Positions 3,253 through 33,554 of a stretch of 64,000 nucleotides of DNA are shown in pieces. The position numbers and the translations under genes were made by a program. The stretch is from an uncultured Syntrophomonadaceae bacterium (lineage in GTDB: Bacteria; Bacillota; Dethiobacteria; DTU022), in the NCBI GenBank assembly GCA_964389365.1, contig CAYMDO010000009.1, positions 3,576 through 67,575 of the forward strand. The letters are read 5' to 3'. The first letter of the stretch is position 1. The number at the start of each line of letters is the position of its first letter. The notes under the pieces were generated by a model. The model had not been told where the DNA came from and made no database searches. It saw only the letters and a list, made by a program, of their open reading frames with translations.

Positions 3253-3263
3253 GATTTCCTGCT

Positions 3264-6863: not shown

Positions 6864-6864
6864 A

Positions 6865-15230: not shown

Positions 15231-15251
15231 CCCGAATGGGTAAAATGAGAG

Positions 15252-16809: not shown

Positions 16810-16852
16810 ATAGCTTGTAATGACAGGATAACATAATGAAGGGATGTATTGA

Positions 16853-17680
16853 ATGGAAAGTAAAAATAGTAGCAGATATATCGACAAGAATAGTATTATT
16901 CCTTATTATCACCAGTTAAAAGAACAACTAAAATTTTATTTTGAAGAAAATAATTTAAATGAAGGCGATCAGATTCCCTCAGAAGCTGAACTTTGTCGGT
17001 CTTATGGTGTTAGTCGGACGGTAGTACGGCAGGCAATTACTGATCTGTTTAATGAAGGTTTGCTTTTCCGTCAGAAGGGAAAGGGTACTTTTATTGCAAG
17101 ACCAAAAATTATTGGCAGTCTGATGCAGAATTTGAATGGTTTTTATAAAGATATGATGGTTAAGGAGTTTAAAACAAGATCTGAGATCCTTGACTTTTCA
17201 ATAGTTGATGCACCTAAAAAGATCGCTAACAGGCTCCAGCGTGAAGTGGGAGAGAAATTATTTAAAATAGATCGACTCCGCTATGTCAACGATGAACCAA
17301 TTGTTTGTGTTATTTCTTACATCCCCTACAGTCTTTGCCCCGAACTTATCAATGAAGACCTCGCCAATCAGTCACTCTACGCAGTCATGGAAGAAAAGTT
17401 TAACTTAAAAATTGCCTCTAGTCGCCGGTCTATAGAGGCGGTAGGGGCGACAGAGGAAATTGCTGTTCTGATGGATATAGAATACTGCGCACCGGTATTT
17501 TTGCTAAAAAGCATTAGTTATCTAGATAACGGAATGCCGGTTGAATATTATGAAGCCAGGCACCGGGGCGATCGAATCGGCTTCGAGGTCGAGATAATAA
17601 ACCAAAAAAATTCCAATCACCATGATAGTGCCGATCTGAGTTTTCAGGTAATGAACCTATCTGATCATAAGCAAGTATAG
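16853..17680 (+). CDS. GntR-family transcriptional regulator (HutC/FarR subfamily with UTRA effector domain)
   Basis: N-terminal wHTH (LPSEAELCRSYGVSRTVVRQAI) plus a C-terminal UTRA-like domain. Confidence 0.85.
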   Translation: MESKNSSRYIDKNSIIPYYHQLKEQLKFYFEENNLNEGDQIPSEAELCRSYGVSRTVVRQAITDLFNEGLLFRQKGKGTFIARPKIIGSLMQNLNGFYKDMMVKEFKTRSEILDFSIVDAPKKIANRLQREVGEKLFKIDRLRYVNDEPIVCVISYIPYSLCPELINEDLANQSLYAVMEEKFNLKIASSRRSIEAVGATEEIAVLMDIEYCAPVFLLKSISYLDNGMPVEYYEARHRGDRIGFEVEIINQKNSNHHDSADLSFQVMNLSDHKQV

Positions 17681-17802
17681 AGGAAGCAACACTTTGCTGA
17701 AATCGCGAAGGGGGTGTTTGATGAATAATTGACAGGCAGGTAAGAGTTTGGGTACAAGGAAGTTTGTTAGGCAGCAAGAATTATAAAGAGGAGGAACATG
17801 GC

Positions 17803-18972
17803 GTGAACAGAAAGTTCAATATTTTAATGCTGATTTTTGTTGTTACGATATTTGGGCTTCTCATTATTGGCTGTGCACCGGATACCCCTGCAGAACCACC
17901 GGTTGACGAAGATGAGGCGGTTTTGGAAAAAATCGTTATCGGTTGGACTCCACCTGACATAACCGGAGTTTTTAAGACGGCAACCGAATACTTCGAGCTG
18001 GCTGCTGAAGATGCCGGTAAGTATGGCATAGAAGTCGAAGTGATATCACGTTCTCCGGCTACCCATGTTGCCTTTGCAGACCAGGTAGCCATTATCGAAG
18101 ATTATATCACTATGGGTGTCGATGTAATTGCTATTTCGCCCATTGAGGTGGAAGTAGTCAAGCCGGCGCTCCAGCAGGCTAACGCGGCGGGGATCCCCAT
18201 AATTATGGTCAACCTTTTAGAGCCAATTGCTGATGTGGATATCGCCTGCTATATCGGGTTCGACAACTTTGATGGCGCAGCCATCACAGCCTATTCGATG
18301 GTAGATTACTTCGGCGGACCTGGAGTCTTAGGTGAGGGCGAAAAAGTTGATGTAACGCCCGAAACTTATCTTGACCTGGCTTGGTGGGAAAGCATTTATG
18401 CTGATGCTGATCCTGCAGCGCTGAATCTTGAGGCTCGGGGAGCGATCATCGAAGGTGTGGCCGGAGGCTTTTTCTCCGTTACCCGTGTAGAAGGCTTCCG
18501 CTCAGTAATAGACAAGTTTCCAGGTATCGTTGAAGTTATGGAGCCCATTCCAGCTGACTGGAACAGGGAAAAGGGTATCGCAGCTGCGGAGGACATTTTG
18601 GCCGCCAACCCTAAAGGAACCCTGGATTGGATCTGGGCTGCCTCTAACGAAATGGGCATGGGAGCCAGGCTTGCCTGTGAAACAGCAGGCAGGACCGAAG
18701 TAGTTGTCTTTACAAATGATGTTACACCGGAATCAGTTCTTGAGTTTATCAATAAGGATCGCATAGTCGCAGAAACTACACACGGTTTTCCCGATTGGGG
18801 ATGGTTTGGAACCAAGTATGCTGTTATGTTGGCGCTCGGTTTGGATGTGCCGCAGTTTGAAGATATTCGGCCACGTACTGCTTACAAAGACAACAGCCAT
18901 ATGTTCTACCCAGAACCAGTTTTGCCACCTATTGATTGGGAAGAAATTCTAGTAAATGCAGGAGTGAAGTAA
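17803..18972 (+). CDS. sugar ABC transporter substrate-binding lipoprotein (PBP type I / CUT2-like)
   Basis: GTG start after AAGAGGAGG. Signal peptide plus lipobox LIIGCAP. Periplasmic-binding-protein fold. Confidence 0.8.
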   Translation: MNRKFNILMLIFVVTIFGLLIIGCAPDTPAEPPVDEDEAVLEKIVIGWTPPDITGVFKTATEYFELAAEDAGKYGIEVEVISRSPATHVAFADQVAIIEDYITMGVDVIAISPIEVEVVKPALQQANAAGIPIIMVNLLEPIADVDIACYIGFDNFDGAAITAYSMVDYFGGPGVLGEGEKVDVTPETYLDLAWWESIYADADPAALNLEARGAIIEGVAGGFFSVTRVEGFRSVIDKFPGIVEVMEPIPADWNREKGIAAAEDILAANPKGTLDWIWAASNEMGMGARLACETAGRTEVVVFTNDVTPESVLEFINKDRIVAETTHGFPDWGWFGTKYAVMLALGLDVPQFEDIRPRTAYKDNSHMFYPEPVLPPIDWEEILVNAGVK

Positions 18973-18981
18973 CCAGCGGTA

Positions 18982-19008
18982 ATAGGGGGGGGGGTAATGC
19001 CCCCCCTA
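18982..19008 (+). terminator. G10/C6 hairpin (intra-operon attenuator/terminator) between the SBP and ATPase genes
   Basis: ATAGGGGGGGGGGTAATGCCCCCCTAT inverted repeat immediately after the SBP stop. Confidence 0.45.
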
Positions 19009-19181
19009 TATACTACCTGCCTCTCAGCCTTCAGCTGAGTTTAGCAGCACATTAATATATGGCTAGCGATATTAAATTTCCAAACTTAATATGGCAATTA
19101 TAGCCAACAATGATGTTGTCTGGCATTGTGGTAAAAGTAAGCAGCTAACCTTTAGTATGTTCACGTAAAGGAGAGTCGATT

Positions 19182-20687
19182 ATGGCTCAACCACCGCTAC
19201 TCGAGCTAAAGAACTTAAATAAGAGCTACCCGGGCGTCCAAGCTTTGAAGGATGTAGATCTTGAGCTTAATTCCGGCGAAGTGCACTTTTTGCTGGGTGA
19301 AAATGGAGCCGGTAAATCTACCTTAATGAAAATTCTAAGCGGTTCGGTACAAAAAGATAGTGGCAAGATTTTGCTGGAAGGAATTCCTATCGAAATTAAT
19401 AGTCCGGCCGATTCGCGGCAACATAGGATTGCCATGGTTTACCAAGAGCTGAGTCTACTGCCGTCTCTAACCGTGGCAGAAAACATTTTTCTGGGAGAGC
19501 TTCCCCAAAAGGGCTGGAGTAAAATAATTGACTGGAAAAGAATAAACCGGGAAACATTGGCAGCGCTGGAAACTGTTGGTTTGCATATATTACCACAGAG
19601 ATTGGTTAAAGACCTTTCTGTTGGTGAGAAACAACTGGTAGAGATTGCCAAAGCAGTCTCGCGAAAAGCGAGGATCTTGCTGCTTGATGAACCGACCTCT
19701 GCGTTGTCAGGAGAAGAATCTGAAAAACTTTTCGCGTTAATAAAAGATTTAAAGGAAAAAGGTATTGCCATCCTCTATATCTCTCACCGTCTGGCTGAAG
19801 TGCCAACTATAGCCCAGCGGGTTACCGTTCTTCGCGATGGTGAGAAGGTGGGGTCTTTTCTTGTTGGCAATGTTGAAGAAAAAGATTTAATCAGAATGAT
19901 GGTAGGCCGGGAAATTGAAGAAAAATTTCCGAAAGAAAAAATAATAATTGGCAAGCCCTTGCTCGAGCTATTTAACCTTAACTTAAAAAACCGATTAAAG
20001 GATATAAATCTTACAGTGAACCAAGGCGAAGTAGTCGGTGTTTTCGGGTTAATGGGGGCAGGGCGGACCTCGCTGGCCAATGCCCTGTTTGGCATTGAAA
20101 AACCAGACAGTGGGACAATCAAGGTTAATGGCTCTGATGTCAGCATTAATAACCCCTGGGATGCAATCTGTGCTGGTTTCGGCTACATCACGGAAGATCG
20201 CCGTGGCAGTTTGGCCCCACGCATGAGTATAGCGGCTAATATCACTTTGCCCAATCTTAAATGCCTCTTATCTTGGGGCTTTTTGAGTTTGTTTAAAGAA
20301 AAGCTTTTGGTTCAAAACTATGTTGACGAATTGAAGATTGCCACTCCGAGCTTGCAGCAGCTCTGCGAGTGCCTAAGTGGGGGGAACCAGCAAAAGGTAG
20401 TACTGGCGCGTTGGATTTGCGCGAGCTCTAAGATTTTACTTCTGGATGAACCAACTAGAGGCATAGATGTTGGCTCAAAAGTTGAAGTGTACCGCTTAAT
20501 GGGGCAGTTGGCAAAAGAGTATGCGGCCATTTTGATGTTCAGCTCGGAGCTCCCTGAAGTAATGGCAGTCAGCGATCGCATTCTGGTAATGTGTGAAGGA
20601 AAAATTGTAGCTTCTTTCAATCAAAATGAGACTACCCCTGATGAAATCATGTTATACGCTACCGGTAGGAGGAAAAAGTGTGGATAA
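19182..20687 (+). CDS. sugar ABC transporter ATP-binding protein (duplicated NBD, RbsA/MglA/XylG type)
   Basis: Two Walker A motifs (GENGAGKST, GLMGAGRTS), two signature motifs (LSVGEKQ, LSGGNQQK) and two Walker B motifs. Confidence 0.9.
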   Translation: MAQPPLLELKNLNKSYPGVQALKDVDLELNSGEVHFLLGENGAGKSTLMKILSGSVQKDSGKILLEGIPIEINSPADSRQHRIAMVYQELSLLPSLTVAENIFLGELPQKGWSKIIDWKRINRETLAALETVGLHILPQRLVKDLSVGEKQLVEIAKAVSRKARILLLDEPTSALSGEESEKLFALIKDLKEKGIAILYISHRLAEVPTIAQRVTVLRDGEKVGSFLVGNVEEKDLIRMMVGREIEEKFPKEKIIIGKPLLELFNLNLKNRLKDINLTVNQGEVVGVFGLMGAGRTSLANALFGIEKPDSGTIKVNGSDVSINNPWDAICAGFGYITEDRRGSLAPRMSIAANITLPNLKCLLSWGFLSLFKEKLLVQNYVDELKIATPSLQQLCECLSGGNQQKVVLARWICASSKILLLDEPTRGIDVGSKVEVYRLMGQLAKEYAAILMFSSELPEVMAVSDRILVMCEGKIVASFNQNETTPDEIMLYATGRRKKCG

Positions 20688-21726
20688 AAACAAGCTATCT
20701 CAAGATTCAGTTTTGCAGGAAAAGATAAAAGTAAAACTTACCGCAACAGACTATTTACGAAAAGCTATAGCCATGAGCGGGCCAATTATAGCCCTGGCCA
20801 TGCTGATGACTTATTTTAGCCTAGCAACGCCTTACTTTGCCACAGGCGGAAATATAATTAATATCGCCCGTCAATCTTCCATAAACATTATGTTAGCTAC
20901 CGGTCAGAGCCTTGTTATTCTATCAGGCGGAATTGATCTGTCGGTTGGGGCGGTAATGGCTCTGGCCGCATCTGTTTCAACTGTTGCCATGACCTACTAT
21001 GGTTTTAATGTTTGGATTGGCATGTTTCTCAGTATAGCAGTAGGATCTTTCGCGGGATTCATCAACGGATTGGTTATAGCCAAAGGTAAGGTGCCGGATT
21101 TTATAGCTACTCTCGGCATGATGACTGTAGCCCGAGGTGTGGCCTTACTTGTAACCGGCGGCCTTCCTGTACCGTCCCATCGCATTGCCCACGAAATTAG
21201 AGCACATATCCCCGACCAATTATTATGGCTTGGAGGAGGCAAGCTTCTTGGTATACCAACCGCACTTCTGGTAGCAATTGGTATCGTCCTTCTTGGTTGG
21301 TTTATCACACGTTATACGAGACTGGGCCGTTCATTATTTGCTGTGGGCGGGAACAAAGAAGCGGCCCGAGTATCCGGGATAAACATTGATCGTACTAAAA
21401 TAGCTGTCTACACTATATCTGGAGCTTTTGCCGGGATTGCTGCACTGGTCTTAACAGGACGCATGAACTCGGCAAACGCACTAATGGGAGAAGGAGCAGA
21501 GCTGCAGTCGATTGCAGCTGTGGTTATCGGCGGTTCTAATCTATATGGTGGAGAAGGCGGTGTGGGAGGCACCCTGGTTGGAGCCCTTATCATGGGTGTC
21601 TTGAATAATGGTTTAAACCTGATCGATGTTTCTGCATTCTGGCAGAGAGTTATACTAGGTTCAGTGCTTATAATCGTTGTGATCTTTGATCAATGGCGCC
21701 GCCGTCGCCTTGCTGTAACCCACTAA
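20680..21726 (+). CDS. sugar ABC transporter permease (RbsC/branched-chain AA transport-permease fold)
   Basis: GTG start after AGGAGG, overlapping the ATPase stop. Multi-TM hydrophobic protein. Confidence 0.85.
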   Translation: MDKNKLSQDSVLQEKIKVKLTATDYLRKAIAMSGPIIALAMLMTYFSLATPYFATGGNIINIARQSSINIMLATGQSLVILSGGIDLSVGAVMALAASVSTVAMTYYGFNVWIGMFLSIAVGSFAGFINGLVIAKGKVPDFIATLGMMTVARGVALLVTGGLPVPSHRIAHEIRAHIPDQLLWLGGGKLLGIPTALLVAIGIVLLGWFITRYTRLGRSLFAVGGNKEAARVSGINIDRTKIAVYTISGAFAGIAALVLTGRMNSANALMGEGAELQSIAAVVIGGSNLYGGEGGVGGTLVGALIMGVLNNGLNLIDVSAFWQRVILGSVLIIVVIFDQWRRRRLAVTH

Positions 21727-21775
21727 TTAACAGCAGCATATTGTAACTAAGCTAAATTAATAGGGAGGTTCCGTT

Positions 21776-22537
21776 ATGAATTTTAGTGGCAAAGCAGTTA
21801 TTGTTACCGGTAGTGGAGAAGGTATTGGCCGTGCGGCTGCGATTGCTTTTGCCCAAAAAGGAGCCCGTGTAGCGATAGCTGACGCTGCACCTCTGAAGGG
21901 AAAAGAAACTGTTGCTCTAATAAAAAGCAGCATTGGCGAGGCTATATATTTTAAAGTTGACATATCCGATACTGGCAGTGTTAGGCAAATGGTCCGTGAT
22001 GTAAAAAAAACTTTCGGCACTATTGATATCCTTGTCAATAATGCCGGCATACATGCCCGGGGAGATGTAGTGGAAACTTCTGAAGATACCTGGGATAAGA
22101 TTATGGCCGTGAACCTGAAAGGAGTTTACCTTTGTTTGCATCATGTGGTTCCGGTAATGATTGAAAAAGGCAGTGGAACAATAGTTAACGTTGCTTCGGA
22201 AGCGGGAATGATTGGCATAAAAGGACAGGTGGCCTATAACGCATCCAAGGCAGGTGTAATTTCTCTTACACAAAGCACGGCCGTTGATTTTGCTGCCAGA
22301 GGGATCAGAGTAAATGCAGTTTCGCCTGGAACAACAGAAACCCCTTTGGTCTCGAAAATATTGGATGAAGCAGACGACCCGGAAGAAATCCGCAAGAGAC
22401 TTGAAGAATGTCGTCCTTTAAACAGGCTTGGAAAAATGGATGAAATTGCTGCTGCGATATTGGCAATGGCATCAGATGAATTAGGTTATGCCACAGGGTC
22501 TGTTCTGACAATTGATGGAGGTTATACCGCTCAGTAA
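21776..22537 (+). CDS. SDR-family NAD(P)-dependent oxidoreductase
   Basis: TGSGEGIG Rossmann motif, NNAG, YNASKAG catalytic tetrad. Confidence 0.85.
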   Translation: MNFSGKAVIVTGSGEGIGRAAAIAFAQKGARVAIADAAPLKGKETVALIKSSIGEAIYFKVDISDTGSVRQMVRDVKKTFGTIDILVNNAGIHARGDVVETSEDTWDKIMAVNLKGVYLCLHHVVPVMIEKGSGTIVNVASEAGMIGIKGQVAYNASKAGVISLTQSTAVDFAARGIRVNAVSPGTTETPLVSKILDEADDPEEIRKRLEECRPLNRLGKMDEIAAAILAMASDELGYATGSVLTIDGGYTAQ

Positions 22538-22573
22538 TCCGAGAAATAATCGGTTTGCTTCTCGCTGGAGGGA

Positions 22574-23452
22574 TTGAGTATGTTCAACTATGCTGTAAGT
22601 AACTGGATCTTTGGTGGAGAAGAACTGGAGACGACCTGCATGCGCCTGCATCGTTTTGGGTATACCGCTATAGAATTAGTAGGCGAGCCTGAACGATACA
22701 AACCGGATCTGGTAAAAGAGCTAACCTTTAAATATAACTTAAAAGTCTCCTCTGTTTTAAGCTGGTGTCTTTGGCCTTTGGAAGACCGGGATCTGGCACA
22801 TACAAATCATGAATATCGCGCAAAAGCAATTGCTTATATTATGCGCAATGTGGATCTGGCTGCTGAAGTTGGTGCACCGGTTGTGATTGTAATTCCCGCA
22901 CCCTCAGGCAGACCGGCTCCACACCGGAATCCGACCTCAGCGGCAGACTGGCAAAAGGCAGCGAAGGAAGAATGGGAGCTGGCGGTTATTTCTGTCCGAG
23001 AAACTGCTATTTACGCACAGGCGAAAAATATATCAATAGCTGTCGAGCCGATCAATCGGTTCGAGACTTTTCTTGTAAACCGAGTAGACCAAGGATTAAA
23101 TTTTATTAAAGAAGTAGGTTTGGAGAATGTTAAACTTCACCTGGATACTTTTCATATGAATATTGAAGATTCGCATATGGGCGAAGCCATATTGAAAGCC
23201 GGATCACTTTTAACAAGCATGCACCTGTCTGATAGCAACAGGTGTGCTATTGGGCGGGGGCATATTAATTTCAAAGAAATTTTAAAAGCTTTGGCTGATA
23301 TAAAATTTCAGGGATCATTAATCCTGGAGCCTCTTCCTCTTCATCCCAATCCATTCGTTGCTGCCGACCTTGAGGAATATCGTTCAGCATGGGATAGCGA
23401 TATTGAAAGCAGCATCAATGTGCTTAGGAAATTGGAATCGTGCTGCGGATGA
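22574..23452 (+). CDS. sugar-phosphate isomerase/epimerase (xylose isomerase-like TIM barrel; ketose 3-epimerase / IolE-IolI-like)
   Basis: AP_endonuc_2-type motifs (VEPINRFETFLVN, HLDTFHMNIE, LSDSNR..GRGHI). Confidence 0.8.
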   Translation: MSMFNYAVSNWIFGGEELETTCMRLHRFGYTAIELVGEPERYKPDLVKELTFKYNLKVSSVLSWCLWPLEDRDLAHTNHEYRAKAIAYIMRNVDLAAEVGAPVVIVIPAPSGRPAPHRNPTSAADWQKAAKEEWELAVISVRETAIYAQAKNISIAVEPINRFETFLVNRVDQGLNFIKEVGLENVKLHLDTFHMNIEDSHMGEAILKAGSLLTSMHLSDSNRCAIGRGHINFKEILKALADIKFQGSLILEPLPLHPNPFVAADLEEYRSAWDSDIESSINVLRKLESCCG

Positions 23453-23475
23453 AATGAACGATTAGGAGGAATTTA

Positions 23476-25296
23476 ATGTTTAGTGGAGCATACTTGCAGA
23501 AAATCTTGCGGATAAATCTTACTAATGAGCAATATACCGAAGAAGTCGTGCCAGATGAACTTTACCGCAGTTACCTTGGTGGGCGGGGAGTCGCGGCATA
23601 CTACTACTACCGGGAGCTAAGCGCTAATACCGACCCTCTATCTGAGGATAATAAGCTTATCTTTTTCACTGGCTCCCTGACCGGATTACAGCTTCCCTCA
23701 ACCACAAAGTTTCAGTGTGCCACCCGCTCTCCGGAAACGGGTGTCTACCTGTGCAGCAACAGCGGTGGAGAAGTTGGCCCTTATTTAAAACGCCGGGGTT
23801 ATGACGGCCTGATAATTGAAGGGCGGGCAAAACGTCTGCTCTATCTGGCGATCAGTCCGGAAGGGATTGAATTTAAGGATGCTGCCGGGATGAAACAACT
23901 TAAGACCAGTGAAACGATAAAAACAGTCCGCGAACAATTAGGGCAACATCGGGCGGCTGTAATGGTTGCCGGTCCGGCTGCATTTAATGGAGTCCGGTAT
24001 GCTAATATTATGGTTAAAGACCGGAGTTTTGGCCGCGGTGGAGCAGGTGCGGTGATGGCTTCAAAGAATTTAAAAGCAGTAGCAGTCAGCCCCTCTGGCG
24101 AAATTCCGGTAGCTGATGCTAAACGAATAAAGGCCATTAACACAGAAGCTATAATTAAAGCTAAAGAAGACAAGCGCGATCATAACCTCTATGGCACCAA
24201 CCAGTACACCGAAATTATAAACGAGCTGGGCTGTTACTCTGTTAAAAATTTTACCACGGGTACTCTGGAAGGGTACGAGACCCTCAGCAAAGATTATGTG
24301 ACTGAGCATTACAAAGAAAAAAGTATTGCCTGTTTCCGTTGTCCGGTGGCCTGTGCCCAACTATGTGCAGTTAAAGATAGCGGCCCCTACCAAGGGGTGC
24401 GCTCCGATCCTGAGTATGAAACAGTTGGAACCCTGGGCGGAGTGTGCGGTGTAACCGACTTTGCTGCGGTTATTGCCGGCAACTACCTCTGTGACGAGTA
24501 CGGTATAGATACGATGACAGTTGGCGATATTATTGGTTATGCCATGGAATGTTTTGAAACCGGCCTGTTTAACCTTGAAGATACCGGTGGCCTCGAACTT
24601 CGTTTCGGCAATGGAGATGCTATGGTCGAAATGATCAGGCATATTGGTGAAGGCATAGGTTTCGGAGCAGTCTTGGGCAAAGGCTTTCGTCTGCTGGCTC
24701 AAGATTATCCCCAAACAGCCAAGAATATGATGCATGTCAAGTGGATGCCTTTTGCTGCTTATGAACCGCGTGGCTTTTATGGAATGGCTTTAGCCTATGG
24801 CACCTCCAGCCGGGGGGCCTGTCACAACGTTGGAGGTTGGACCATTCGCGATGAACTGCTTATAAAAAAATACGATCGATTTGCCCTCCATGGGAAAGGC
24901 GAACTGGTCAAGCGGCTTCAGGACACGAGGGCTTACATTGACTGCCTGGGTATTTGTACGGTTGTCCGCAGCGCCCTCGGTTTTACCGATACTCCGGAAG
25001 GAGACGTGCTCCAAGCTGCAACAGGGGTAAACTTTACGCCGGAGCTGATAAAGATCGGCGAAAGGATAAATACGCTGGAGCGTATGATCCTGGTTAGGGA
25101 GGGTATTAGTCGCGAAAACGACTATCCCCCGGAAAGGATTTTAACCGAACCGCTTCCCGAAGGGCCGGCCAAGGATAAAATATTAACCAGGGAAATGTAT
25201 GATATCATGCTTGACGAATATTACCGCCTGAGACTCTGGGATGAAAACGGAAAACCTACAGAAAAAGGACTCAAAGCCCAGGAGGTTTTGTTTTGA
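23476..25296 (+). CDS. aor: tungsten-containing aldehyde:ferredoxin oxidoreductase (AOR family)
   Basis: Collinear with P. furiosus AOR (GGRG, GPAAFN..A, GRGGAGAVMASKNLKA, CxxC.xC Fe-S ligands, PEYE, GxCH). Confidence 0.85.
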   Translation: MFSGAYLQKILRINLTNEQYTEEVVPDELYRSYLGGRGVAAYYYYRELSANTDPLSEDNKLIFFTGSLTGLQLPSTTKFQCATRSPETGVYLCSNSGGEVGPYLKRRGYDGLIIEGRAKRLLYLAISPEGIEFKDAAGMKQLKTSETIKTVREQLGQHRAAVMVAGPAAFNGVRYANIMVKDRSFGRGGAGAVMASKNLKAVAVSPSGEIPVADAKRIKAINTEAIIKAKEDKRDHNLYGTNQYTEIINELGCYSVKNFTTGTLEGYETLSKDYVTEHYKEKSIACFRCPVACAQLCAVKDSGPYQGVRSDPEYETVGTLGGVCGVTDFAAVIAGNYLCDEYGIDTMTVGDIIGYAMECFETGLFNLEDTGGLELRFGNGDAMVEMIRHIGEGIGFGAVLGKGFRLLAQDYPQTAKNMMHVKWMPFAAYEPRGFYGMALAYGTSSRGACHNVGGWTIRDELLIKKYDRFALHGKGELVKRLQDTRAYIDCLGICTVVRSALGFTDTPEGDVLQAATGVNFTPELIKIGERINTLERMILVREGISRENDYPPERILTEPLPEGPAKDKILTREMYDIMLDEYYRLRLWDENGKPTEKGLKAQEVLF

Positions 25297-25553
25297 TTGA
25301 TATTTCGGTAAAATATACCGGTCTGATCAGGAGTATAGCCGTCAGCAGCGAAGAGAAATGGACGGTTAAAGATGAGGCCACCTTGGAAGAACTGCTGGTG
25401 GCAGTTGCATCAAAATATCACGTAAAGTTAGATGACAGTGCTAAGTTTATTGTTGTCTATAACGACCATGGTATCAGCTTTGATCAGTGGTCCGAACAGG
25501 TTCTCCAAAATAACGACAAGGTGCTTATCCTGCCATCAATTTCGGGAGGTTAA
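25293..25553 (+). CDS. MoaD/ThiS-family small beta-grasp protein with C-terminal Gly-Gly (AOR-associated)
   Basis: 86 aa ending ...PSISGG. Overlaps the AOR stop by 4 bp. Confidence 0.6.
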   Translation: MIDISVKYTGLIRSIAVSSEEKWTVKDEATLEELLVAVASKYHVKLDDSAKFIVVYNDHGISFDQWSEQVLQNNDKVLILPSISGG

Positions 25554-25555
25554 CA

Positions 25556-26560
25556 ATGGTTAAAAACTCAGTACTGATTACCTCTCGCTCTTTCGCCCAG
25601 TTGGACAATGGGCCGTTAATTTATCTGCAGGAAGCAGGCTGCCTCATAGAGCGAAATAAGAAACAGTTGCACTACAGCGAAGAAGAAATGGCAGAAGCCA
25701 TATCAGGCATTGATGGGCTGCTTGTAGGCCTTGATCCTGTTACAGAAAAAGTACTGGCAGCCGCGCCGAGGCTTAAGGTGGTATCCAAGTATGGTGCCGG
25801 ATTAGACAACATCGACCTGGATGCGGCCACACATTACGGAGTTGTTGTTACCAATACCCCCGGAGCAAATACCGAAGCGGTAGCCGACCTTACATATGGA
25901 TTGATGTTAGCGGTCGGCAGGCGTATTGTCGAAGCGCACGAATCAGTCAGGGCAGGATCATGGGAGTCATTTTTAGGGGTAGATTTATGGGGTAAAACCC
26001 TGGGCATTATTGGCACGGGCCGTATCGGCAGGGCAATAGCTTATAGAGCCAGGGGTTTTAACATGCAGATTCTTTCCTACGACTGTAATCCTGATCACGG
26101 TTGGGCTGAAAACTGTGGTGCCAGCTATGTTAGCCTGATAGACTTAATGCGGCAAAGCGATTATGTAACGGTGCACCTGCCCTTAACGGAAGAAACCAGG
26201 GGCTTAATTGGAAGTGACCTGTTAAAGCTGATGAAACCATCAGCCATACTGGTTAATACTTCCAGGGGCGGAATCGTAGATGAAACAGCTCTGGTAGATA
26301 TACTTAGACAGGATAAAATATTCGGAGCTGCTTTGGATGTTTATAGTATAGAGCCGCTTGAAAACAAAGATATCTTATCTTCACCGAGGCTTATAACTAC
26401 CCCCCACATCAGTGCACACAGCAGCGGCTCCCTTCTCAAAATGGGTATGATGGCAGCAGACAACCTGGTCCGGGTACTACAAAATCAGCGGCCAGAGCAT
26501 GTGGCAAATCCAGCAGTATACAAAACAATCAAGGAAGGTGACCGTGGTGAAGGCAAATGA
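25556..26560 (+). CDS. D-isomer-specific 2-hydroxyacid dehydrogenase (glycerate/hydroxypyruvate/phosphoglycerate dehydrogenase-like)
   Basis: GIIGTGRIG NAD motif and the catalytic R/E/H arrangement. Confidence 0.85.
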   Translation: MVKNSVLITSRSFAQLDNGPLIYLQEAGCLIERNKKQLHYSEEEMAEAISGIDGLLVGLDPVTEKVLAAAPRLKVVSKYGAGLDNIDLDAATHYGVVVTNTPGANTEAVADLTYGLMLAVGRRIVEAHESVRAGSWESFLGVDLWGKTLGIIGTGRIGRAIAYRARGFNMQILSYDCNPDHGWAENCGASYVSLIDLMRQSDYVTVHLPLTEETRGLIGSDLLKLMKPSAILVNTSRGGIVDETALVDILRQDKIFGAALDVYSIEPLENKDILSSPRLITTPHISAHSSGSLLKMGMMAADNLVRVLQNQRPEHVANPAVYKTIKEGDRGEGK

Positions 26561-27566
26561 TCTGGTCGGAGTCGGTGTAATCGGAACCGGGCGGGCCGGT
26601 ATGGTGCATATAGCAAACTTTGCTGAAAATGTGCCTCGCGCCCGTTTGGTTGCAGTATGCGATCTTAACGAAAAAAGTGTGCAGGAAGCTGCCCTTAAAT
26701 GGAATGCAGATTCATACACAAGCCCTGAAGAATTCTTAAAACACCCTTCACTTGATGCTGTGGTTATCGCCACGCCAACCTTTGCGCATGCAGCACTGGT
26801 TATCGCGGCTGCAGAAGCGAAAAAAGCTATTCTTTGCGAGAAGCCCTTAACTATCACAGAAGAAGAAGCAGGGGATATGGATAAGGCGGTAAAGCAAAAC
26901 GGGGTACCCTTTGTGATGGGTTTCATGCGCCGTTTTGATCAAAGTTTTCTTCGTGCCCGGGAGATGGTTGAAAGAGGTGACATAGGCGAACCGTTGATGG
27001 TTAAGTCAACAGGAAAGGGACCGGGTCTGCCTCCCTCTTGGAACCTCGATATTGAAAAAAGTAATGGCATGTTGGCCGAAGTAAACAGTCATGACTTTGA
27101 TTGTGTGCGTTTTTTAACCGGCGAAGAATACAAATGGGTGTTTGCCACAGCTCTTAACAATAAATGCCCCGATTATAAGGCGGAGTACCCCCAATTTTAC
27201 GATACTGCTATTGTCACTTTCGGCATGTCCGGTAAAATTATTGGCACTATCGACGGGGCCTGCCCGGCCGACTATGGCTATGATGCCAGGGTCGAAATTC
27301 AGGGTGCTGATGGTGTTCTTTTCATCGGTGATCTGGCCAAAAAAGGGATTGTGATTGGCCGCAAGGGCAAAGGTGTGGCAGAAGAGATAGTTGATAGCTG
27401 GCGCTCGCTTTTTCGTGAGGCCTATCTGGCTGAAGATCGGTGCCTTGTCGATTGTGTGTTAAAGGGTATAGAATCGCCTTCGACCCTAACAGATGGTTGG
27501 CAGGCGTTAAAGGCGGTTCGTGCTGCAAACCGTTCGATCCGCAGCGGGCAGGTAGTAGAAGTATGA
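26547..27566 (+). CDS. Gfo/Idh/MocA-family oxidoreductase (inositol 2-dehydrogenase-like)
   Basis: GTG start after AAGGAAGGTGA. GVIGTGRAG N-terminal Rossmann fold. EKP motif. Confidence 0.8.
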   Translation: MKANDLVGVGVIGTGRAGMVHIANFAENVPRARLVAVCDLNEKSVQEAALKWNADSYTSPEEFLKHPSLDAVVIATPTFAHAALVIAAAEAKKAILCEKPLTITEEEAGDMDKAVKQNGVPFVMGFMRRFDQSFLRAREMVERGDIGEPLMVKSTGKGPGLPPSWNLDIEKSNGMLAEVNSHDFDCVRFLTGEEYKWVFATALNNKCPDYKAEYPQFYDTAIVTFGMSGKIIGTIDGACPADYGYDARVEIQGADGVLFIGDLAKKGIVIGRKGKGVAEEIVDSWRSLFREAYLAEDRCLVDCVLKGIESPSTLTDGWQALKAVRAANRSIRSGQVVEV

Positions 27567-28645
27567 ACGCAGCAGCAGAAAAAATGACAGCAGCAGTATA
27601 CCGTGACGGGACAATTGAAATTAAAAAAATCCCACGTCCACACCCGGGAGAAAACGAATTGGTCATAAAGGTCGAAGCTGCAGCTATATGTGCTACTGAC
27701 CTGAAGATATGGAAAAGGGGGCACCGCAATATTGCCGCCGGTAGTGCGGCTGTTCTGGGGCATGAAGTGGTTGGCAAGGTGTTTGAGGTTGGCTCAAAGA
27801 TCGACAAAACCTGGTTGGGGAAAAGAGTAGTAATTCCACCCAATGTGGGTTGCGGTGCATGCCCGGCCTGTGAGGTGGGGTGGGATAGTTATTGTCCCGA
27901 TTACAAAGCCTATGGCGTCGGGCTGCCAGGTAGTTTTGCCGAATACATGTTGGTCGGGGCTATGTCAGCCGGATCGGGGCAATTGATCTCTGTTGCGGAT
28001 CATATCCCTACAAAAGTTGCTGTGCTGGCCGAAGCTGCATCCTGCTGCTACCGCGGTTTGCTTGATTGTGACTTGCAGCCTGAAGAAAAAGTATTGGTCT
28101 TGGGAGCAGGCCCAATGGGCATTCTTAGTATCATAGCCGCCGAAGCAATGGGTGCGTCAACTATTATAAGTGCTGATCTCCTTGAAGAACGACGAAATAC
28201 AAGCAAAAAGTTTGGCGCCGTATATACCCTGAATCCGGCAGTTGATCACTTTGAAGAAGCGGTGAAAGAAGTAAGCGGTGGCTGGGGTGTTGATGTGGTT
28301 ATGGTCACTGCTCCATTCGCAGGAGCACAACGCCAGGGCATCATGGCCGCTGCAGTGGGTGGTCGGATTAATCTTTTTGCCGGGCTTTCTCCGGACGATC
28401 GATTTGATGATTTCCCCTCAAACCTCGTTCACTACCGTGGCTTGAAAGTTTTGGGCAGTACGGGGGCCACTTCGCAAGTGATGCAGGCAGTGGTAAATTT
28501 GATGGCCGAAGGGCACCTGGCGTTGCTGCAACAGGCGGTTACGGCAGTTTATGCATTGGAAGATATGGTTAAGGCATTAGAAATGGCCGGAAGTGGTAGG
28601 GAAATTAAGGTTATGGTAGTGCCTGACAGTAAGATGATAGTTTAG
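27563..28645 (+). CDS. Zn-dependent medium-chain alcohol/polyol dehydrogenase (sorbitol DH / TDH-like)
   Basis: ATG overlaps the upstream stop (ATGA). GHE catalytic-Zn motif, structural-Zn Cys cluster CGACPACEVGWDSYC, GAGPMG NAD motif. Confidence 0.8.
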   Translation: MNAAAEKMTAAVYRDGTIEIKKIPRPHPGENELVIKVEAAAICATDLKIWKRGHRNIAAGSAAVLGHEVVGKVFEVGSKIDKTWLGKRVVIPPNVGCGACPACEVGWDSYCPDYKAYGVGLPGSFAEYMLVGAMSAGSGQLISVADHIPTKVAVLAEAASCCYRGLLDCDLQPEEKVLVLGAGPMGILSIIAAEAMGASTIISADLLEERRNTSKKFGAVYTLNPAVDHFEEAVKEVSGGWGVDVVMVTAPFAGAQRQGIMAAAVGGRINLFAGLSPDDRFDDFPSNLVHYRGLKVLGSTGATSQVMQAVVNLMAEGHLALLQQAVTAVYALEDMVKALEMAGSGREIKVMVVPDSKMIV

Positions 28646-28679
28646 CGAATTATTTCCTGATTACATTAGGAGAGGATCA

Positions 28680-30230
28680 ATGATGGGCGAGACTTATTTG
28701 CTTGGGATTGACCTGGGAACAATGGGAACTAAGGCAGCTCTATACAATCTGGAAGGAAAAGCCCTAGCAGAAGCTTACGAGGAATCTATACTGCGCTACC
28801 CGCGAATAGGCTGGGTGGAACAGGATTTTGAAGAGATTTATAGTTCGGCAGTTAATTGTATTAAAGAAGTTTTAGAAAAAAGCGGCATCGAAAGTGGTGC
28901 CGTGGCGGCTCTTGCATTCAGCAGTCAAATGTCAGGTATAGGGATGATTGATCGGGATTGGGCGCCCGCAGCCCATTATGACAGCTGGCTCGATACTCGC
29001 TGTGAATCAGCTTTCCCCCTCATGGAGCCTTACTGCCATGATTTTACAGCAAACAGTGGTTGCCCACCTACCTATGCTCATGCAGCAAAAATTATCTGGT
29101 GGAAGAATAACCAGCCGGAAGTATTTAAAAATGCAGCACGATTTGTTGTTCCGCTCGCCTATGTTGCCGGCAAGATGGCCGGATTGAAGGCCGATGAAGC
29201 CTATATTGATCTCACTTGCCTGCATTTTTCAGGATTCAGCAATACCGGAGAGCAGAAGTGGTCACAGGAGTTGCTTAACAAGTTTGAAATACCCGAAGAG
29301 AAAATGCCACGAATTATATCTCCGACAGAGGTTATCGGAAAAGTCAACCGTGAAGCGGCCCGTGCAACCGGTTTAAAAGAAGGCACACCTATTGCTGCCG
29401 GTGCAGGGGATCAAGCGGCAGCATCTCTTGGCGCAGGAGTGGTCGAGCCGGGTGATGTTTTTGACAGTGCCGGAACCGCTTCTGTTTTTTCAGTCTGTGT
29501 TAATAGCTTTTTGCCTGACGTCCGGAATAAAGTTGTTCTGGCCACTCATGGTGTCATACCCGGTACTTACTATGCCTTGTCATTTATTAATGGAGGCGGC
29601 CTAAATTTAAGATGGTTCCGTGATACTTTTGGTCTCCAGGAGAAGAATGAGGCTGCGGCGGCCAAAAAAGAAGTTTACCAGATCTTTGATCAAATGGCTG
29701 CTCAATCTCCGGCAGGTTCGGGCGGCACAATATTTATTCCCCATTTGCAGGGCAGAGTAGTTCCGCCGGACGCTTCATTAAGAGGGCTCTGGGTTGGTTT
29801 TACCTGGTCTCATGACCGTGGCCACCTTTTCCGGGCGATGATGGAAGGGGTCGCTTATGAGTATGCATACTATCTGCAGATAGAAAAAGAGCTTCACCCG
29901 GATCTCGAGTGCCGGGAGGTAAGGGCGATCGGTGGTGGTGCATCAAGCGATCTATGGAATCAAATTAAAAGTGATGTTTTAGACATACCATATTGTCGAA
30001 TTAACCGATCGGAAGTTGGCACCTGGGGCTGTGCCATGATTGCCGGCAAAGCAGTAGGTATTTTTAACGACTTAAAGACAATTTCCAAGGAAGCCACACA
30101 GATTAGCCATCGCCTTGAACCGCGCTCTCATTACACCGGATTTTATCGACCCTATGTTGACATTTACAGGCAGATAATTGAAGGGTATGCCGATATATTT
30201 GATGGCTTAAGTGAGCTGCCTTTGGAGTAA
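28680..30230 (+). CDS. FGGY-family carbohydrate kinase (xylulokinase/gluconokinase-like)
   Basis: N-terminal LLGIDLGTMGTKAALY. FGGY_N and FGGY_C domains. Confidence 0.8.
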   Translation: MMGETYLLGIDLGTMGTKAALYNLEGKALAEAYEESILRYPRIGWVEQDFEEIYSSAVNCIKEVLEKSGIESGAVAALAFSSQMSGIGMIDRDWAPAAHYDSWLDTRCESAFPLMEPYCHDFTANSGCPPTYAHAAKIIWWKNNQPEVFKNAARFVVPLAYVAGKMAGLKADEAYIDLTCLHFSGFSNTGEQKWSQELLNKFEIPEEKMPRIISPTEVIGKVNREAARATGLKEGTPIAAGAGDQAAASLGAGVVEPGDVFDSAGTASVFSVCVNSFLPDVRNKVVLATHGVIPGTYYALSFINGGGLNLRWFRDTFGLQEKNEAAAAKKEVYQIFDQMAAQSPAGSGGTIFIPHLQGRVVPPDASLRGLWVGFTWSHDRGHLFRAMMEGVAYEYAYYLQIEKELHPDLECREVRAIGGGASSDLWNQIKSDVLDIPYCRINRSEVGTWGCAMIAGKAVGIFNDLKTISKEATQISHRLEPRSHYTGFYRPYVDIYRQIIEGYADIFDGLSELPLE

Positions 30231-30274
30231 TTAGTAACAAATTAAGCAGCTAAAAAAGAAGAAAGGGGTTACAA

Positions 30275-30928
30275 ATGCTTGCCAAGGTAAAAATATTTAA
30301 CCGTATTTTTAATGCCGGTATTATTGCTGTTATCAGGGCTGATTCAATGGAACAGGCGCTGGCGACAACAGAAGCGGTACGAAATGGCGGCGTAGATATT
30401 ATTGAAATCACCCTGACTGTTCCAGGTGCTTTGGGTGTAATTGAAGAGTTAACAAAGACATACCGCAACAATGAAATACTGATCGGTGCCGGAACGGTAC
30501 TGGATTCCGAAACTGCCCGCATCTCTCTATTGGCAGGAGCTGAATTTGTTGTCAGCCCCTTTCTGAATCACGATGTGCTAAGACTTTGCAATCGCTACCA
30601 GAAAATTTGCATGCCTGGTTGTATGACTGTAACAGAGATTGTTTCTGCTCTTGAAGCCGGGGCGGACTTAATTAAACTCTTTCCCGGAAGTTTTTTTGAC
30701 CCCTCAATAATTAAGACCTTGAAAGGACCTTTGCCCCAAGCTGAATTTGTTCCTACCGGGGGAGTTAACCTCGACAATGTTCAGGATTGGATTTATAACG
30801 GATGTATAGCAGTTGGGGTTGGTGGAGAACTGACCAAAGGGGCTGCTGAAGGTGACTACCGAAGAGTTACAGAAACCGCCCGCCAATTTGTCGAAAAAAT
30901 ACGGACAGTACGTCCTTTACAAGCGTAG
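30275..30928 (+). CDS. eda: KDPG/KHG-family aldolase (2-dehydro-3-deoxy-phosphogluconate / 4-hydroxy-2-oxoglutarate aldolase)
   Basis: 217 aa. IIAVIR, EITLT, GAGTVL, KLFPG, PTGGV motifs. Confidence 0.8.
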   Translation: MLAKVKIFNRIFNAGIIAVIRADSMEQALATTEAVRNGGVDIIEITLTVPGALGVIEELTKTYRNNEILIGAGTVLDSETARISLLAGAEFVVSPFLNHDVLRLCNRYQKICMPGCMTVTEIVSALEAGADLIKLFPGSFFDPSIIKTLKGPLPQAEFVPTGGVNLDNVQDWIYNGCIAVGVGGELTKGAAEGDYRRVTETARQFVEKIRTVRPLQA

Positions 30929-30952
30929 TATAGCCAGGAGGCTTGTGAGACG

Positions 30953-31825
30953 ATGAAATATGCTGTTAGCAGTTGGATCTATGGAGGCGAGAGCTTAGAG
31001 CATGTTTTTGACCGGTTAGCTAGGTATGGATACGATGCTGTTGAATTGGAAGGCGAACCGGATAAGTACGCAGTAAAAGAAGTTCTAGAGCTAAGTCGCC
31101 GGTACTGCCTCTCAATATCCGGAATTGCCGGGATGTATCCATGGCCAACCGAGGAGAGGGATCTGGCTTCACCAGATCCAGAGGTAAGGAAAAGAGCAGT
31201 GCAATATTTGCATTCCTGCATAGAATTTGCTCATGATCTGGCTGCACCGTTGGTAATTGTGGTGCCATCTGCGGTGGGAAAAACCATGCCTTTACCGATC
31301 TTTAATGGAGAAAAGGATATATCAGCATGGGATGAAACAGTTGAGAGGGAGTGGGCATATGCGCAGGATTCAGTTGGTAAATGTTGTGAGGCTGCCCGTG
31401 AAAAAGGAATAATTTTGGCAGTTGAGCCGATTAACCGCTATGAAACCTTCCTTATCAATACCTGCCGCCAAGGCTTGCAGTTTATATCATCATTCGGCGA
31501 AAAAACAGTAAGACTTCATCTTGATACATTTCATATGAATATTGAGGAAATAAACCAGAAACAGGCCATCCTAGAAGCAGGAGAACTTCTGGCCAATCTT
31601 CACGTGGCCGACAGTAATCGACAGGCGGTTGGGAGAGGGCATATTGATTTTGCCGGAGTAGTCAGCAGCCTTAAAGAGATAAATTATGCAGGAGTACTTT
31701 CTTTGGAACCACTGCCGCCAGTTCCTAATCCTTATGTGGCCATGAAACTGGATCGCTACAAAGCAATGCGAGACGAGATTGCCCGTGAAAGTATTGAAAC
31801 GTTGAAGATAATAGATGCACAATAG
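30953..31825 (+). CDS. sugar-phosphate isomerase/epimerase, paralog of 22574-23452
   Basis: Shares VEPINRYETFLIN and LHLDTFHMNIE with the upstream paralog (~45% identity by eye). Confidence 0.8.
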   Translation: MKYAVSSWIYGGESLEHVFDRLARYGYDAVELEGEPDKYAVKEVLELSRRYCLSISGIAGMYPWPTEERDLASPDPEVRKRAVQYLHSCIEFAHDLAAPLVIVVPSAVGKTMPLPIFNGEKDISAWDETVEREWAYAQDSVGKCCEAAREKGIILAVEPINRYETFLINTCRQGLQFISSFGEKTVRLHLDTFHMNIEEINQKQAILEAGELLANLHVADSNRQAVGRGHIDFAGVVSSLKEINYAGVLSLEPLPPVPNPYVAMKLDRYKAMRDEIARESIETLKIIDAQ

Positions 31826-31879
31826 ATTACGCAACAGCCGATTATTAAGGGATTAATTAGGCCGAGAGGAGGTTTTGCC

Positions 31880-33440: not shown

Positions 33441-33443
33441 ATG

Positions 33444-33538: not shown

Positions 33539-33554
33539 TATACCTGTATCTTAT

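Follow-up and report, generated by a model that had tools for sequence, protein, structure and literature searches.

A conserved clade of aldehyde:ferredoxin oxidoreductases in a carbohydrate island of anaerobic bacteria, and its possible role in the oxidation of a sugar aldehyde

What does an aldehyde:ferredoxin oxidoreductase (AOR) do in the middle of a sugar operon? The question is raised by a stretch of 64,000 nucleotides (the window) from an uncultured Syntrophomonadaceae bacterium (contig CAYMDO010000009.1, positions 3,576 to 67,575 of the forward strand), in which the genes for an AOR and a small MoaD-like protein lie among genes for the uptake and conversion of a carbohydrate. The fixed presence of AOR and its helper in this 15.7-kb sugar island of many anaerobes points to a hitherto undescribed catabolic job for the family. 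We put the probability at roughly 0.5 that the AOR oxidizes an anionic sugar aldehyde made within the pathway, most likely an aldose phosphate supplied by an FGGY-family kinase and a cupin-type isomerase encoded in the same island. The proposal is based on comparisons of sequence and gene order, and begins with the two genes themselves:

23476–25296 (+): aldehyde:ferredoxin oxidoreductase, class I tungsten oxidoreductase (WOR), large subunit only (PF02730 and PF01314; 379 bits to 1AOR)
25293–25553 (+): MoaD/ThiS-like β-grasp protein ('WorX') with a Gly-Gly end, translationally coupled to AOR (PF02597, TTGA overlap, ribosome-binding site)

The first open reading frame (ORF) encodes 606 aa and matches both Pfam domains of the family, AFOR_N (PF02730, E 1.8e-66) and AFOR_C (PF01314, E 1.6e-114). 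It is collinear with Pyrococcus furiosus AOR (PfAOR, 1AOR), residues 9–598 aligning with 7–595 at 379 bits; weaker matches to solved structures are to other AORs, FOR, WOR5 and BamB. The [4Fe-4S] ligands C286, C289, C293 and C494, with the spacing CxxCxxxC...C, correspond to C288, C291, C295 and C494 of PfAOR and are universally conserved in the alignment. T241, E315 and H450 (the last equivalent to His448 of PfAOR) are kept in the clade and outgroup, and the equivalents of Tyr427 and Tyr312 lie in an AYEPRG and an EYE motif respectively. The second-shell residues conserved in aldehyde-oxidizing members are Thr243, Glu311, Tyr312, Glu313, Tyr427 and His448 in PfAOR numbering (PMC13328260, PMC12096430), and all of them are kept in the window AOR. 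Judged by these residues, it is a complete family member with all cluster and catalytic residues. By Pfam, no gene for a ferredoxin-like small subunit (Fer4-type, poly-ferredoxin) occurs among the cluster genes at 16853–32449, and the enzyme is therefore placed in class I, defined as having the large subunit only (PMC13328260).

PfAOR, which belongs to WOR clade 87 and is also class I, shares with the window AOR the two-domain fold family, a full-length alignment, the cysteines and second shell, and the lack of a small subunit. The two are, however, only ~40% identical, and the window AOR falls in a separate clade. They also differ in setting: the PfAOR gene is assigned to the detoxification of aldehydes from peptide fermentation (PMC13328260), whereas the window AOR gene is located in a sugar operon.

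The second ORF encodes 86 aa, matches ThiS (PF02597, E 8e-12) and ends in SISGG. Its TTG start overlaps the TGA stop of the AOR gene (TTGA, 4 nt), with a GGAGG 8 nt upstream. An earlier note, made from the DNA of the window alone, had described a bona fide AOR collinear with that of Pyrococcus, including the Fe-S cysteines, and translationally coupled to a Gly-Gly-ended β-grasp protein; both descriptions stand. A Gly-Gly-ended ORF lies directly 3′ of AOR in 12 of 14 loci. It is absent from one related cluster (L023, described below) in which an NAD(P)-dependent aldehyde dehydrogenase (ALDH) replaces AOR, and this argues that the MoaD-like protein serves AOR and not the chemistry of the pathway. 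Its probable task is to provide the sulfur of the pterin cofactor, and it is no enzyme of the pathway itself. Neither MoeB/ThiF nor further cofactor genes were found alongside it within the window. A MoaD-like gene beside AOR is a known cofactor-related association (PMC1779556, 2006; PMC13328260, 2026), and the AOR-linked MoaD ('WorX') proteins of Moorella, Syntrophomonas, Aromatoleum and Cetobacterium have the same small ThiS/MoaD fold, C-terminal Gly-Gly and position immediately after AOR, with no notable difference. The pairing of a class I WOR with 'WorX' is already known, and both proteins are ordinary as parts. Among other AORs, P0128 (696 aa, from the Moorella AOR cluster in a Logan assembly) carries a MoaD-like C-terminal extension. 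The extension may reflect a genuine AOR::MoaD fusion of the kind reported for Azoarcus (PMC1779556); otherwise it is an artefact of read-through or assembly.

What distinguishes this AOR is its company. It has more than 100 homologues at identities of at least 54%. In a library clustered at 50% identity the top representative scores 621 bits, followed by others at 509, 502 and 439 bits, and in a neighbour-joining tree the window AOR, proteins P0001–P0120 and the 621-bit representative form one monophyletic clade, with PfAOR elsewhere. Gene context was read for 12 lineages with a clade AOR, at 52–96% identity to that of the window. These are Syntrophomonadaceae (the window, L010 and L011), Dethiobacteria, two Bacillota metagenome-assembled genomes (MAGs), Neomoorella thermoacetica, a MAG labelled Limnocylindrales, Desulfobacterales, Christensenellales, Chloroflexi, a Proteobacteria MAG and two Joint Genome Institute (JGI) metagenome lineages.

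A cupin-type phosphoglucose isomerase homologue (cupin-PGI) and a zinc-dependent alcohol dehydrogenase (Zn-ADH) accompany AOR in 12/12 lineages, a Gfo/Idh/MocA (IolG-like) dehydrogenase in 11/12, an FGGY kinase in 10/12, a 2-hydroxyacid dehydrogenase in 9/12, and an Eda aldolase of the KDPG (2-keto-3-deoxy-6-phosphogluconate) type in 8/12. The FGGY and cupin-PGI genes adjoin in seven lineages. The aldolase is the least conserved partner, being absent from the Moorella, UBA993, Proteobacteria MAG and ALDH-variant clusters, where AOR or ALDH remains. An unrelated AOR at 30% identity (L016) has none of these neighbours. Since the same gene set surrounds every clade AOR for which the context was read, the arrangement is not due to chance.

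The link to the cupin is closer still in some lineages. Protein P0044 is an in-frame AOR::cupin-PGI fusion of 811 aa with the cupin at the C-terminus, and its AOR part is 56% identical to that of the window; the fusion occurs at L007 (9542–11977) and also at L008 and L009, on contigs from three JGI samples. In the Chloroflexi locus (L018) the cupin-PGI gene stops 4 nt ahead of the AOR start. As a separate observation, P0176 (832 aa), a 37% identical AOR from another clade, has a C-terminal extension of ~230 aa that by eye resembles hexulose-6-phosphate synthase and orotidine-monophosphate-decarboxylase-like barrels. This may be a further instance of fusion between an AOR and an enzyme of sugar phosphates, in this case one that could release the aldehyde substrate of the AOR.

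The cluster without AOR mentioned above was located via cupin homologues, in a Limnochordales MAG (L023, GCA_035304545.1). It is orthologous to that of the window (binding protein 71% identical, other enzymes 39–60%), and its genes run in the order GntR regulator, binding protein, short-chain dehydrogenase/reductase (SDR), ATPase, permease, Gfo/Idh/MocA, Zn-ADH, ALDH, cupin, FGGY kinase, 2-hydroxyacid dehydrogenase, with neither TIM-barrel genes nor aldolase. The slot of AOR and MoaD is filled by an NAD(P) aldehyde dehydrogenase (8499–9944, PF00171) that is closest to the SSADH/GabD type. The step is therefore an oxidation of a pathway aldehyde to an acid, running in the oxidative direction; a reductive role (acid to aldehyde) for the AOR step is ruled out in this variant. 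The conservation of the cluster across phyla, together with this replacement, upholds the earlier suggestion that AOR is embedded in, and functionally tied to, a sugar operon.

The AORs of the clade also have residues of their own. The catalytic Thr is followed by invariant Q243-Y244-T245, where PfAOR has V-L-V in the alignment; the catalytic Glu is followed by invariant G318, where PfAOR has Trp; and an invariant N451 is inserted after the catalytic His. R458 is likewise invariant, and after the fourth cluster Cys there is an insertion of about seven residues that contains invariant R498. All of these are rare outside the clade, and at these positions PfAOR has hydrophobic residues or none. 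The polar replacements and two added arginines would fit a polyhydroxylated, anionic substrate. An aldehyde that carries a negative charge, and not a neutral one of C2 or C3, is suggested by the invariant Arg residues together with the resemblance of the replacing ALDH to GabD.

These observations bear on the simplest alternative, that the AOR, like the P. furiosus or acetogen type, serves for detoxification or the reduction of acids with broad specificity and is merely carried along with the island. The closest characterized relative is indeed the broad-specificity AOR of P. furiosus, most characterized class I WORs have been assigned to detoxification (PMC13328260), and sugar dicarbonyl by-products could need removal. 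Against this stand the strict association of AOR with one set of enzymes throughout 12 lineages from several phyla, the fusion to a pathway enzyme, the ALDH in the same slot (which in that variant excludes acid reduction), and the clade-specific remodelling beside the catalytic residues. We regard this alternative as very improbable. It is about an even chance, in our judgement, that AOR is one committed step of a horizontally mobile carbohydrate island (of polyol, cyclitol or rare-sugar type) and no general detoxifier.

To see what such a step might do, the remaining genes of the island are needed. The + strand carries every gene from 16853 to 32449, and these lie close together or overlap, except for a gap of 210 nt between the genes for the binding protein and the ATPase. 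A promoter-like sequence (TTGACA-17-TAGAAT, 16781–16809) precedes the regulator gene. The features are as follows:

16769–32448 (+): sugar/AOR island, one co-directional gene cluster (nucleotide similarity to L010; GC)
16853–17680 (+): GntR/UTRA (HutC-type) transcription regulator (PF00392, PF07702), conserved in related clusters
17764–18972 (+): substrate-binding lipoprotein of a CUT2-type sugar ABC transporter (PF13407)
19182–20687 (+): ABC transporter ATPase with two ABC domains (PF00005 twice)
20626–21726 (+): ABC transporter permease, true start probably downstream of 20626 (PF02653)
21776–22537 (+): short-chain dehydrogenase/reductase (PF13561/PF00106)
22574–23452 (+): xylose-isomerase-like TIM barrel 1, ketose 3-epimerase or IolO-like (PF01261)
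25556–26560 (+): D-isomer-specific 2-hydroxyacid dehydrogenase, glyoxylate/hydroxypyruvate reductase or PGDH-like (PF00389, PF02826)
26544–27566 (+): Gfo/Idh/MocA dehydrogenase, inositol-dehydrogenase-like (PF01408, PF02894)
27563–28645 (+): zinc-dependent alcohol/polyol dehydrogenase (PF08240, PF00107)
28680–30230 (+): FGGY-family sugar kinase (PF00370, PF02782)
30275–30928 (+): KDPG/KHG (Eda-type, class I) aldolase (PF01081)
30953–31825 (+): xylose-isomerase-like TIM barrel 2 (PF01261)
31880–32449 (+): cupin-type phosphoglucose isomerase homologue (PF06560)

AOR is thus flanked by the TIM-barrel isomerase-like gene and the 2-hydroxyacid dehydrogenase gene, with a KDPG-type aldolase in the same operon, much as the earlier note had it. 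The aldolase passes its NCBIfam model (NF005119, 291 bits against a cut-off of 238), and the SDR, present in most related clusters, passes only a broad subfamily cut-off (NF005559). The 2-hydroxyacid dehydrogenase, the Gfo/Idh/MocA dehydrogenase, Zn-ADH, the FGGY kinase and both TIM barrels fall below the cut-offs of their best NCBIfam models. For the 2-hydroxyacid dehydrogenase these are PGDH (287 bits) and glyoxylate reductase (272 bits), the closest solved structures being Pyrococcus glyoxylate reductase (220 bits) and PGDH (213 bits). The FGGY kinase matches XylB at 269 and GntK at 214 bits, and its closest solved relative is the gluconate kinase 3gbt.

The cupin matches P. furiosus phosphoglucose isomerase (cPGI) at 204 bits and ~50% identity. 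In all cluster cupin orthologues examined, the TKGHFH and GHDY positions, Glu97 and His136 are kept; the positions aligned with His88, His90, Glu97, His136, His158 and Tyr160 of P. furiosus cPGI, which we take to be metal ligands and phosphate contacts, are conserved, and Tyr152 varies (W/Y/R). By its domain and these aligned positions, the protein is a predicted cupin-type phosphoglucose isomerase.

A pathway can be proposed from these parts. The CUT2 ABC system would import the substrate, whose remodelling would fall to three dehydrogenases (IolG-like, Zn-ADH, SDR) and, in the window, also to the two TIM-barrel epimerase/isomerase-like proteins. The FGGY kinase would then phosphorylate it, and the cupin-PGI homologue would convert the product to an aldose phosphate. 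AOR would oxidize the C1 aldehyde to a phospho-aldonic acid and, as predicted for a tungsten enzyme of its family, pass two electrons to ferredoxin. This step would be the sugar-phosphate analogue of the GAPOR reaction, and of glucose-6-phosphate dehydrogenase plus lactonase. C2 of the phospho-aldonic acid would be the target of the neighbouring 2-hydroxyacid dehydrogenase, and the KDPG-type aldolase, where present, would yield pyruvate and glyceraldehyde 3-phosphate (GAP).

The two central steps have a parallel in pyridoxal phosphate synthesis, where Epd and PdxB convert erythrose 4-phosphate to 4-phosphoerythronate and this, via a D-2-hydroxyacid dehydrogenase acting at C2, to the 2-keto acid. 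The two-step logic is the same as that proposed here, yet the Epd-PdxB route is biosynthetic, starts with a GAPDH-type enzyme and stands apart from any transporter, kinase or aldolase. The proposed likeness to GAPOR, also a class I enzyme (PMC13328260), lies in a ferredoxin-linked, non-phosphorylating oxidation of a phosphorylated sugar aldehyde in a catabolic pathway. GAPOR and GOR are, however, set apart by their published assignment to clades 23 and 20 (PMC13328260), the closest solved relatives of the window AOR being AORs sensu stricto, and the substrate of GAPOR is GAP as against the longer aldose phosphate that would be made by the cupin isomerase.

Several points weigh against oxidation of an aldose phosphate. 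Hexose 6-phosphates are mostly cyclic hemiacetals, and we know of no AOR that oxidizes them. Thermodynamics disfavours the NAD-linked oxidation of 2-hydroxyacids, and the 2-hydroxyacid dehydrogenase may therefore serve as a reductase at some other point of the route. A 3-deoxy-2-keto acid is required by the Eda aldolase, and no known sugar-acid dehydratase family (ILVD_EDD, enolase superfamily, UxaA or UxuA) is present in the island or in any related cluster read; how the AOR product would lead to the aldolase is thus unexplained. (The IlvD gene at 50711–52387 belongs to an ilv/leu gene group outside the island.) The Christensenellales cluster (L017) has no FGGY kinase, both AOR and ALDH are missing from the cPGI clusters of Desulfocucumis (L021) and Shinella (L024), and the AOR::cupin-PGI fusion is confined to one lineage. 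The closeness of the clade-specific residues to the active site is one of sequence position and not of structure, and neither a tungstate transporter nor other cofactor genes were seen in the window.

The 3-deoxy carbon could come from a substrate that is itself a deoxy compound, or from an elimination carried out by a TIM-barrel or cupin enzyme, or the route could be decarboxylative; kinase-containing decarboxylative routes for sugar acids do exist, as was recently shown (PMC12994016). One possibility is that a KDPG-type intermediate is reached without a sugar-acid dehydratase, for example by way of a 3-deoxy aldose phosphate, or of a 3-deoxy-osone phosphate that would arise at the cupin isomerase. 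If true, this would be a new route from sugar to pyruvate and GAP, with low-potential electrons for H2 or for the reduction of CO2. More broadly, and with a probability below that of the main proposal, this whole clade of bacterial AORs could consist of ferredoxin-dependent oxidoreductases of aldose phosphates (or of anionic sugar aldehydes), forming the core of a widespread undescribed pathway of anaerobes, for which aerobic or facultative relatives would use an NAD(P)-dependent ALDH.

The aldolase is also the starting point of the explanation favoured by the earlier note. Here, the Eda-type aldolase frees glyceraldehyde, glycolaldehyde or lactaldehyde, AOR oxidizes the aldehyde with ferredoxin, and the 2-hydroxyacid dehydrogenase handles the acid (glycerate, glycolate or lactate), giving a module like the non-phosphorylative Entner–Doudoroff (ED) pathway. 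The aldolase is indeed present in the window and in 8/12 lineages, the closest solved relatives of the 2-hydroxyacid dehydrogenase are glyoxylate/hydroxypyruvate reductases, and a role for AOR in the archaeal branched ED pathway has reportedly been proposed in Thermoproteus tenax. The archaeal branched and non-phosphorylative pathways resemble the proposed module in having an aldolase that gives pyruvate and an aldehyde, and an aldehyde oxidoreductase with a non-pyridine acceptor.

The likeness does not go much further. The island has neither the gluconate dehydratase nor the glycerate kinase of the archaeal pathways, and a gluconate-type dehydratase and a glycerate kinase are found in none of the clusters. 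Its aldolase is Eda-type, whereas the archaeal KD(P)G aldolase is DapA-type, and its core is a kinase and a sugar-phosphate isomerase. The aldolase is of the standard KDPG/KHG type and lies next to an FGGY kinase (in L018, to a PfkB kinase), from which one would expect its cleavage to give a phosphorylated product (GAP). It is also less tightly associated with AOR than cupin-PGI (12/12) and the FGGY kinase (10/12), and it is the sugar-phosphate isomerase, not the aldolase, to which AOR is fused or adjacent. The invariant Arg and the GabD-like ALDH suggest an anionic aldehyde, and the NAD-linked oxidation of glycerate or glycolate would be unfavourable. We therefore consider the aldol-cleavage aldehyde and the non-phosphorylative ED-like module improbable, and this part of the earlier interpretation is not retained.

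The dehydrogenases of the island point elsewhere, to the inositol pathway of Thermotoga maritima (IolG, IolM, IolN, IolO), in which four island proteins have their best named relatives. The Gfo/Idh/MocA protein, whose start at 26544 follows the gene call on an identical contig (L001), matches IolG (TIGR04380) at 270 bits against a cut-off of 355; its 13 best solved relatives are all named inositol dehydrogenases, except for two deposited merely as dehydrogenases, and the top one is 3ezy, presumably TM0414. The Zn-ADH matches IolM, scyllo-inosose 3-dehydrogenase, at 181 bits (cut-off 450), and its solved relatives are threonine and sorbitol dehydrogenases. TIM barrels 1 and 2 match IolO at 149 and 164 bits and psicose 3-epimerase at 139 and 138 bits, with cut-offs of 300 bits for the first; both fall below the cut-offs. 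The closest solved relatives of TIM barrel 1 are ketose 3-epimerases and TM0416. An identification of the island with the Thermotoga pathway was rejected, all of these scores being below equivalog level. By Pfam there is no candidate for the ring-cleaving hydrolase IolN among the cluster genes, and the Thermotoga pathway has no AOR, cupin-PGI, FGGY kinase or 2-hydroxyacid dehydrogenase, all of which are members of the island. The canonical Bacillus iol pathway (IolB/IolC/IolJ/IolA) was also rejected. The replacing ALDH is GabD-like, with no methylmalonate-semialdehyde (IolA-type) match among the best matches listed, and an Eda-type aldolase is not known to make dihydroxyacetone phosphate.

The inositol-like enzymes can nevertheless be read as part of another serious alternative, in which Zn-ADH and AOR form a couple. 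Either Zn-ADH oxidizes a terminal CH2OH, or an inosose ring is opened to a hexos-5-ulose, and AOR then makes a uronic or keto-aldonic acid such as 5-keto-gluconate, to be handled by the isomerase, the reductases (2-hydroxyacid dehydrogenase, SDR), the kinase and the aldolase, or by a decarboxylative route. The Zn-ADH gene lies directly before AOR or ALDH in L007, L017 and L023. Although Gfo/Idh/MocA and Zn-ADH resemble Thermotoga IolG and IolM, there is no candidate for the ring-cleaving hydrolase, and an aldehyde oxidation could stand in for it. Zn-ADH, SDR, 2-hydroxyacid dehydrogenase and a gluconate-kinase-like FGGY protein are the families of the 2-keto-L-gulonate/L-idonate/5-ketogluconate/gluconate route. 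A carboxylate would fit the invariant Arg and the GabD-like ALDH equally, and decarboxylative sugar-acid routes with a kinase provide a precedent (PMC12994016). On the other hand, this scheme gives no clear role to the cupin protein, which is ~50% identical to true phosphoglucose isomerases and keeps the aligned active-site positions, and it does not explain the AOR::cupin fusion. A dehydratase ahead of the aldolase is still missing, and gene order is an unreliable guide to the order of steps. On balance we hold the Zn-ADH–AOR couple to be unlikely, although less so than release of a free aldehyde by the aldolase, and prefer the oxidation of an aldose phosphate.

Hints to the substrate come from the predicted inositol- and polyol-dehydrogenase-like enzymes and ketose-3-epimerase-like TIM barrels. 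The binding protein is 58–90% identical in the orthologous clusters, 71% in the ALDH variant and 68% in an Atribacteria cluster (L022). Its matches to solved proteins are weak (at most 78 bits, to ribose-binding proteins), and an identification of the substrate by this means was dropped; the view that the substrate cannot be deduced from the sequence thus holds, as no ligand can be inferred from such matches. In Moorella thermoacetica COM, genes MTCOM_21580–21620 are the equivalent of locus L006. The cluster Zn-ADH ('YdjJ', MTCOM_21580) is listed only for COM among five M. thermoacetica strains, and growth on sorbitol and mannitol is likewise confined to COM among the M. thermoacetica isolates (PMC11328732). 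The AOR of M. carbonis ACPs is in the same 90%-identity protein cluster as the Moorella AOR, yet this strain does not grow on sorbitol or mannitol. All the isolates grow on myo-inositol, and Moorella strains do so whether the cluster Zn-ADH is reported for them or not (PMC11328732).

The island appears as a unit. In a related Syntrophomonadaceae MAG (L010, AOR 89% identical) nucleotide similarity to the window is confined to 16769–32448 (82.7% over 15.7 kb), and the flanks are unrelated; since the similarity ends at its borders, the cluster is a discrete, transferable module. Its GC content is 0.43–0.49 compared to 0.50–0.57 in the flanks, and three tRNA genes (tRNA-Arg, tRNA-Ser, tRNA-Ser; 33363–33640, − strand) lie just downstream. 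The low GC, sharp borders and adjacent tRNA genes suggest that the complete module was transferred horizontally. The closest relatives of the window are uncultured Syntrophomonadaceae MAGs.

A full-text search of the literature found no paper that assigns an AOR to a sugar, cyclitol or polyol operon. The earlier note had left room for the operon being already assigned to a known pathway, and no such published assignment was found. The 2026 classification of WORs, built on gene neighbourhoods, nowhere uses the words sugar, inositol, carbohydrate, kinase or isomerase, and by its account only 5 of 92 tungsten oxidoreductase clades have a defined physiological role, mostly detoxification (PMC13328260). 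An AOR clade embedded in a carbohydrate island, the fusion of AOR to a phosphoglucose isomerase and the displacement of AOR by ALDH all appear to be undescribed. The fixed partnership with sugar enzymes, the fusion partner and the NAD(P)-dependent stand-in provide a concrete, testable catabolic role for a large and well-delimited clade. If true, the proposal would add a ferredoxin-reducing oxidation step to bacterial carbohydrate metabolism, of relevance to hydrogen-producing syntrophs and acetogens, would account for a tungsten requirement of cells growing on a given sugar or polyol, and would imply a pathway whose chemistry from the acid product to the KDPG-type aldolase exceeds that of known enzymes. 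Since cultured Moorella strains carry the cluster (M. thermoacetica COM, M. carbonis and M. sulfitireducens), it is experimentally tractable.

The flanks of the island in the window have other functions. Downstream are housekeeping genes, and upstream is a gene set of the purine-fermentation type (1930–16487), with two xanthine-dehydrogenase-family molybdoenzymes, an FAD subunit, two amidohydrolases, a carbamoyltransferase, an M20 peptidase, a 597-aa 4Fe-4S dicluster protein that we judge to be YgfK-like, and a pyridoxal-phosphate-dependent lyase. Because of these molybdoenzymes, the organism is taken to use pterin-cofactor enzymes besides AOR. Two short ORFs (32532–32939 and 32954–33178, + strand; 135 and 74 aa) that follow the island and precede the tRNA genes lie beyond the similarity to L010. 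They have no Pfam match and may be junction remnants or spurious.

Related clusters differ in their peripheral genes, which give further hints to the substrate and include L-fucose isomerase, aldose 1-epimerase and an AGE-family epimerase, and in Desulfocucumis palustris tagatose kinases and GatY. The cluster of this cultured species (L021, GCA_002933875.1, 120–15297) has a 65% identical cupin together with Eda, 2-hydroxyacid dehydrogenase, FGGY and Gfo/Idh/MocA genes, and is joined to genes for a tagatose kinase, a hexose/tagatose-6-phosphate kinase, a GatY-type aldolase and DeoC. Rhizobial cPGI loci (Shinella, S. meliloti pSymB and Sinorhizobium sp.) were rejected as orthologues, being too distant (FGGY 24% identical), and are loose analogies at most. 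Three AOR clusters (L002 1205–2527, L017 6504–7829 and L014 1–339) encode a soluble protein of ~440 aa, absent from the window, which has no Pfam domain and only a faint match to the C-terminal part of L-fucose isomerase. It is 51% identical between Dethiobacteria and Christensenellales, and is possibly an uncharacterized sugar isomerase. In the Christensenellales MAG, ~1.4 kb downstream of the AOR cluster (L017 15788–18263), lie the genes for a type 2A encapsulin shell protein (SrpI-like) and, after it, a cysteine desulfurase.

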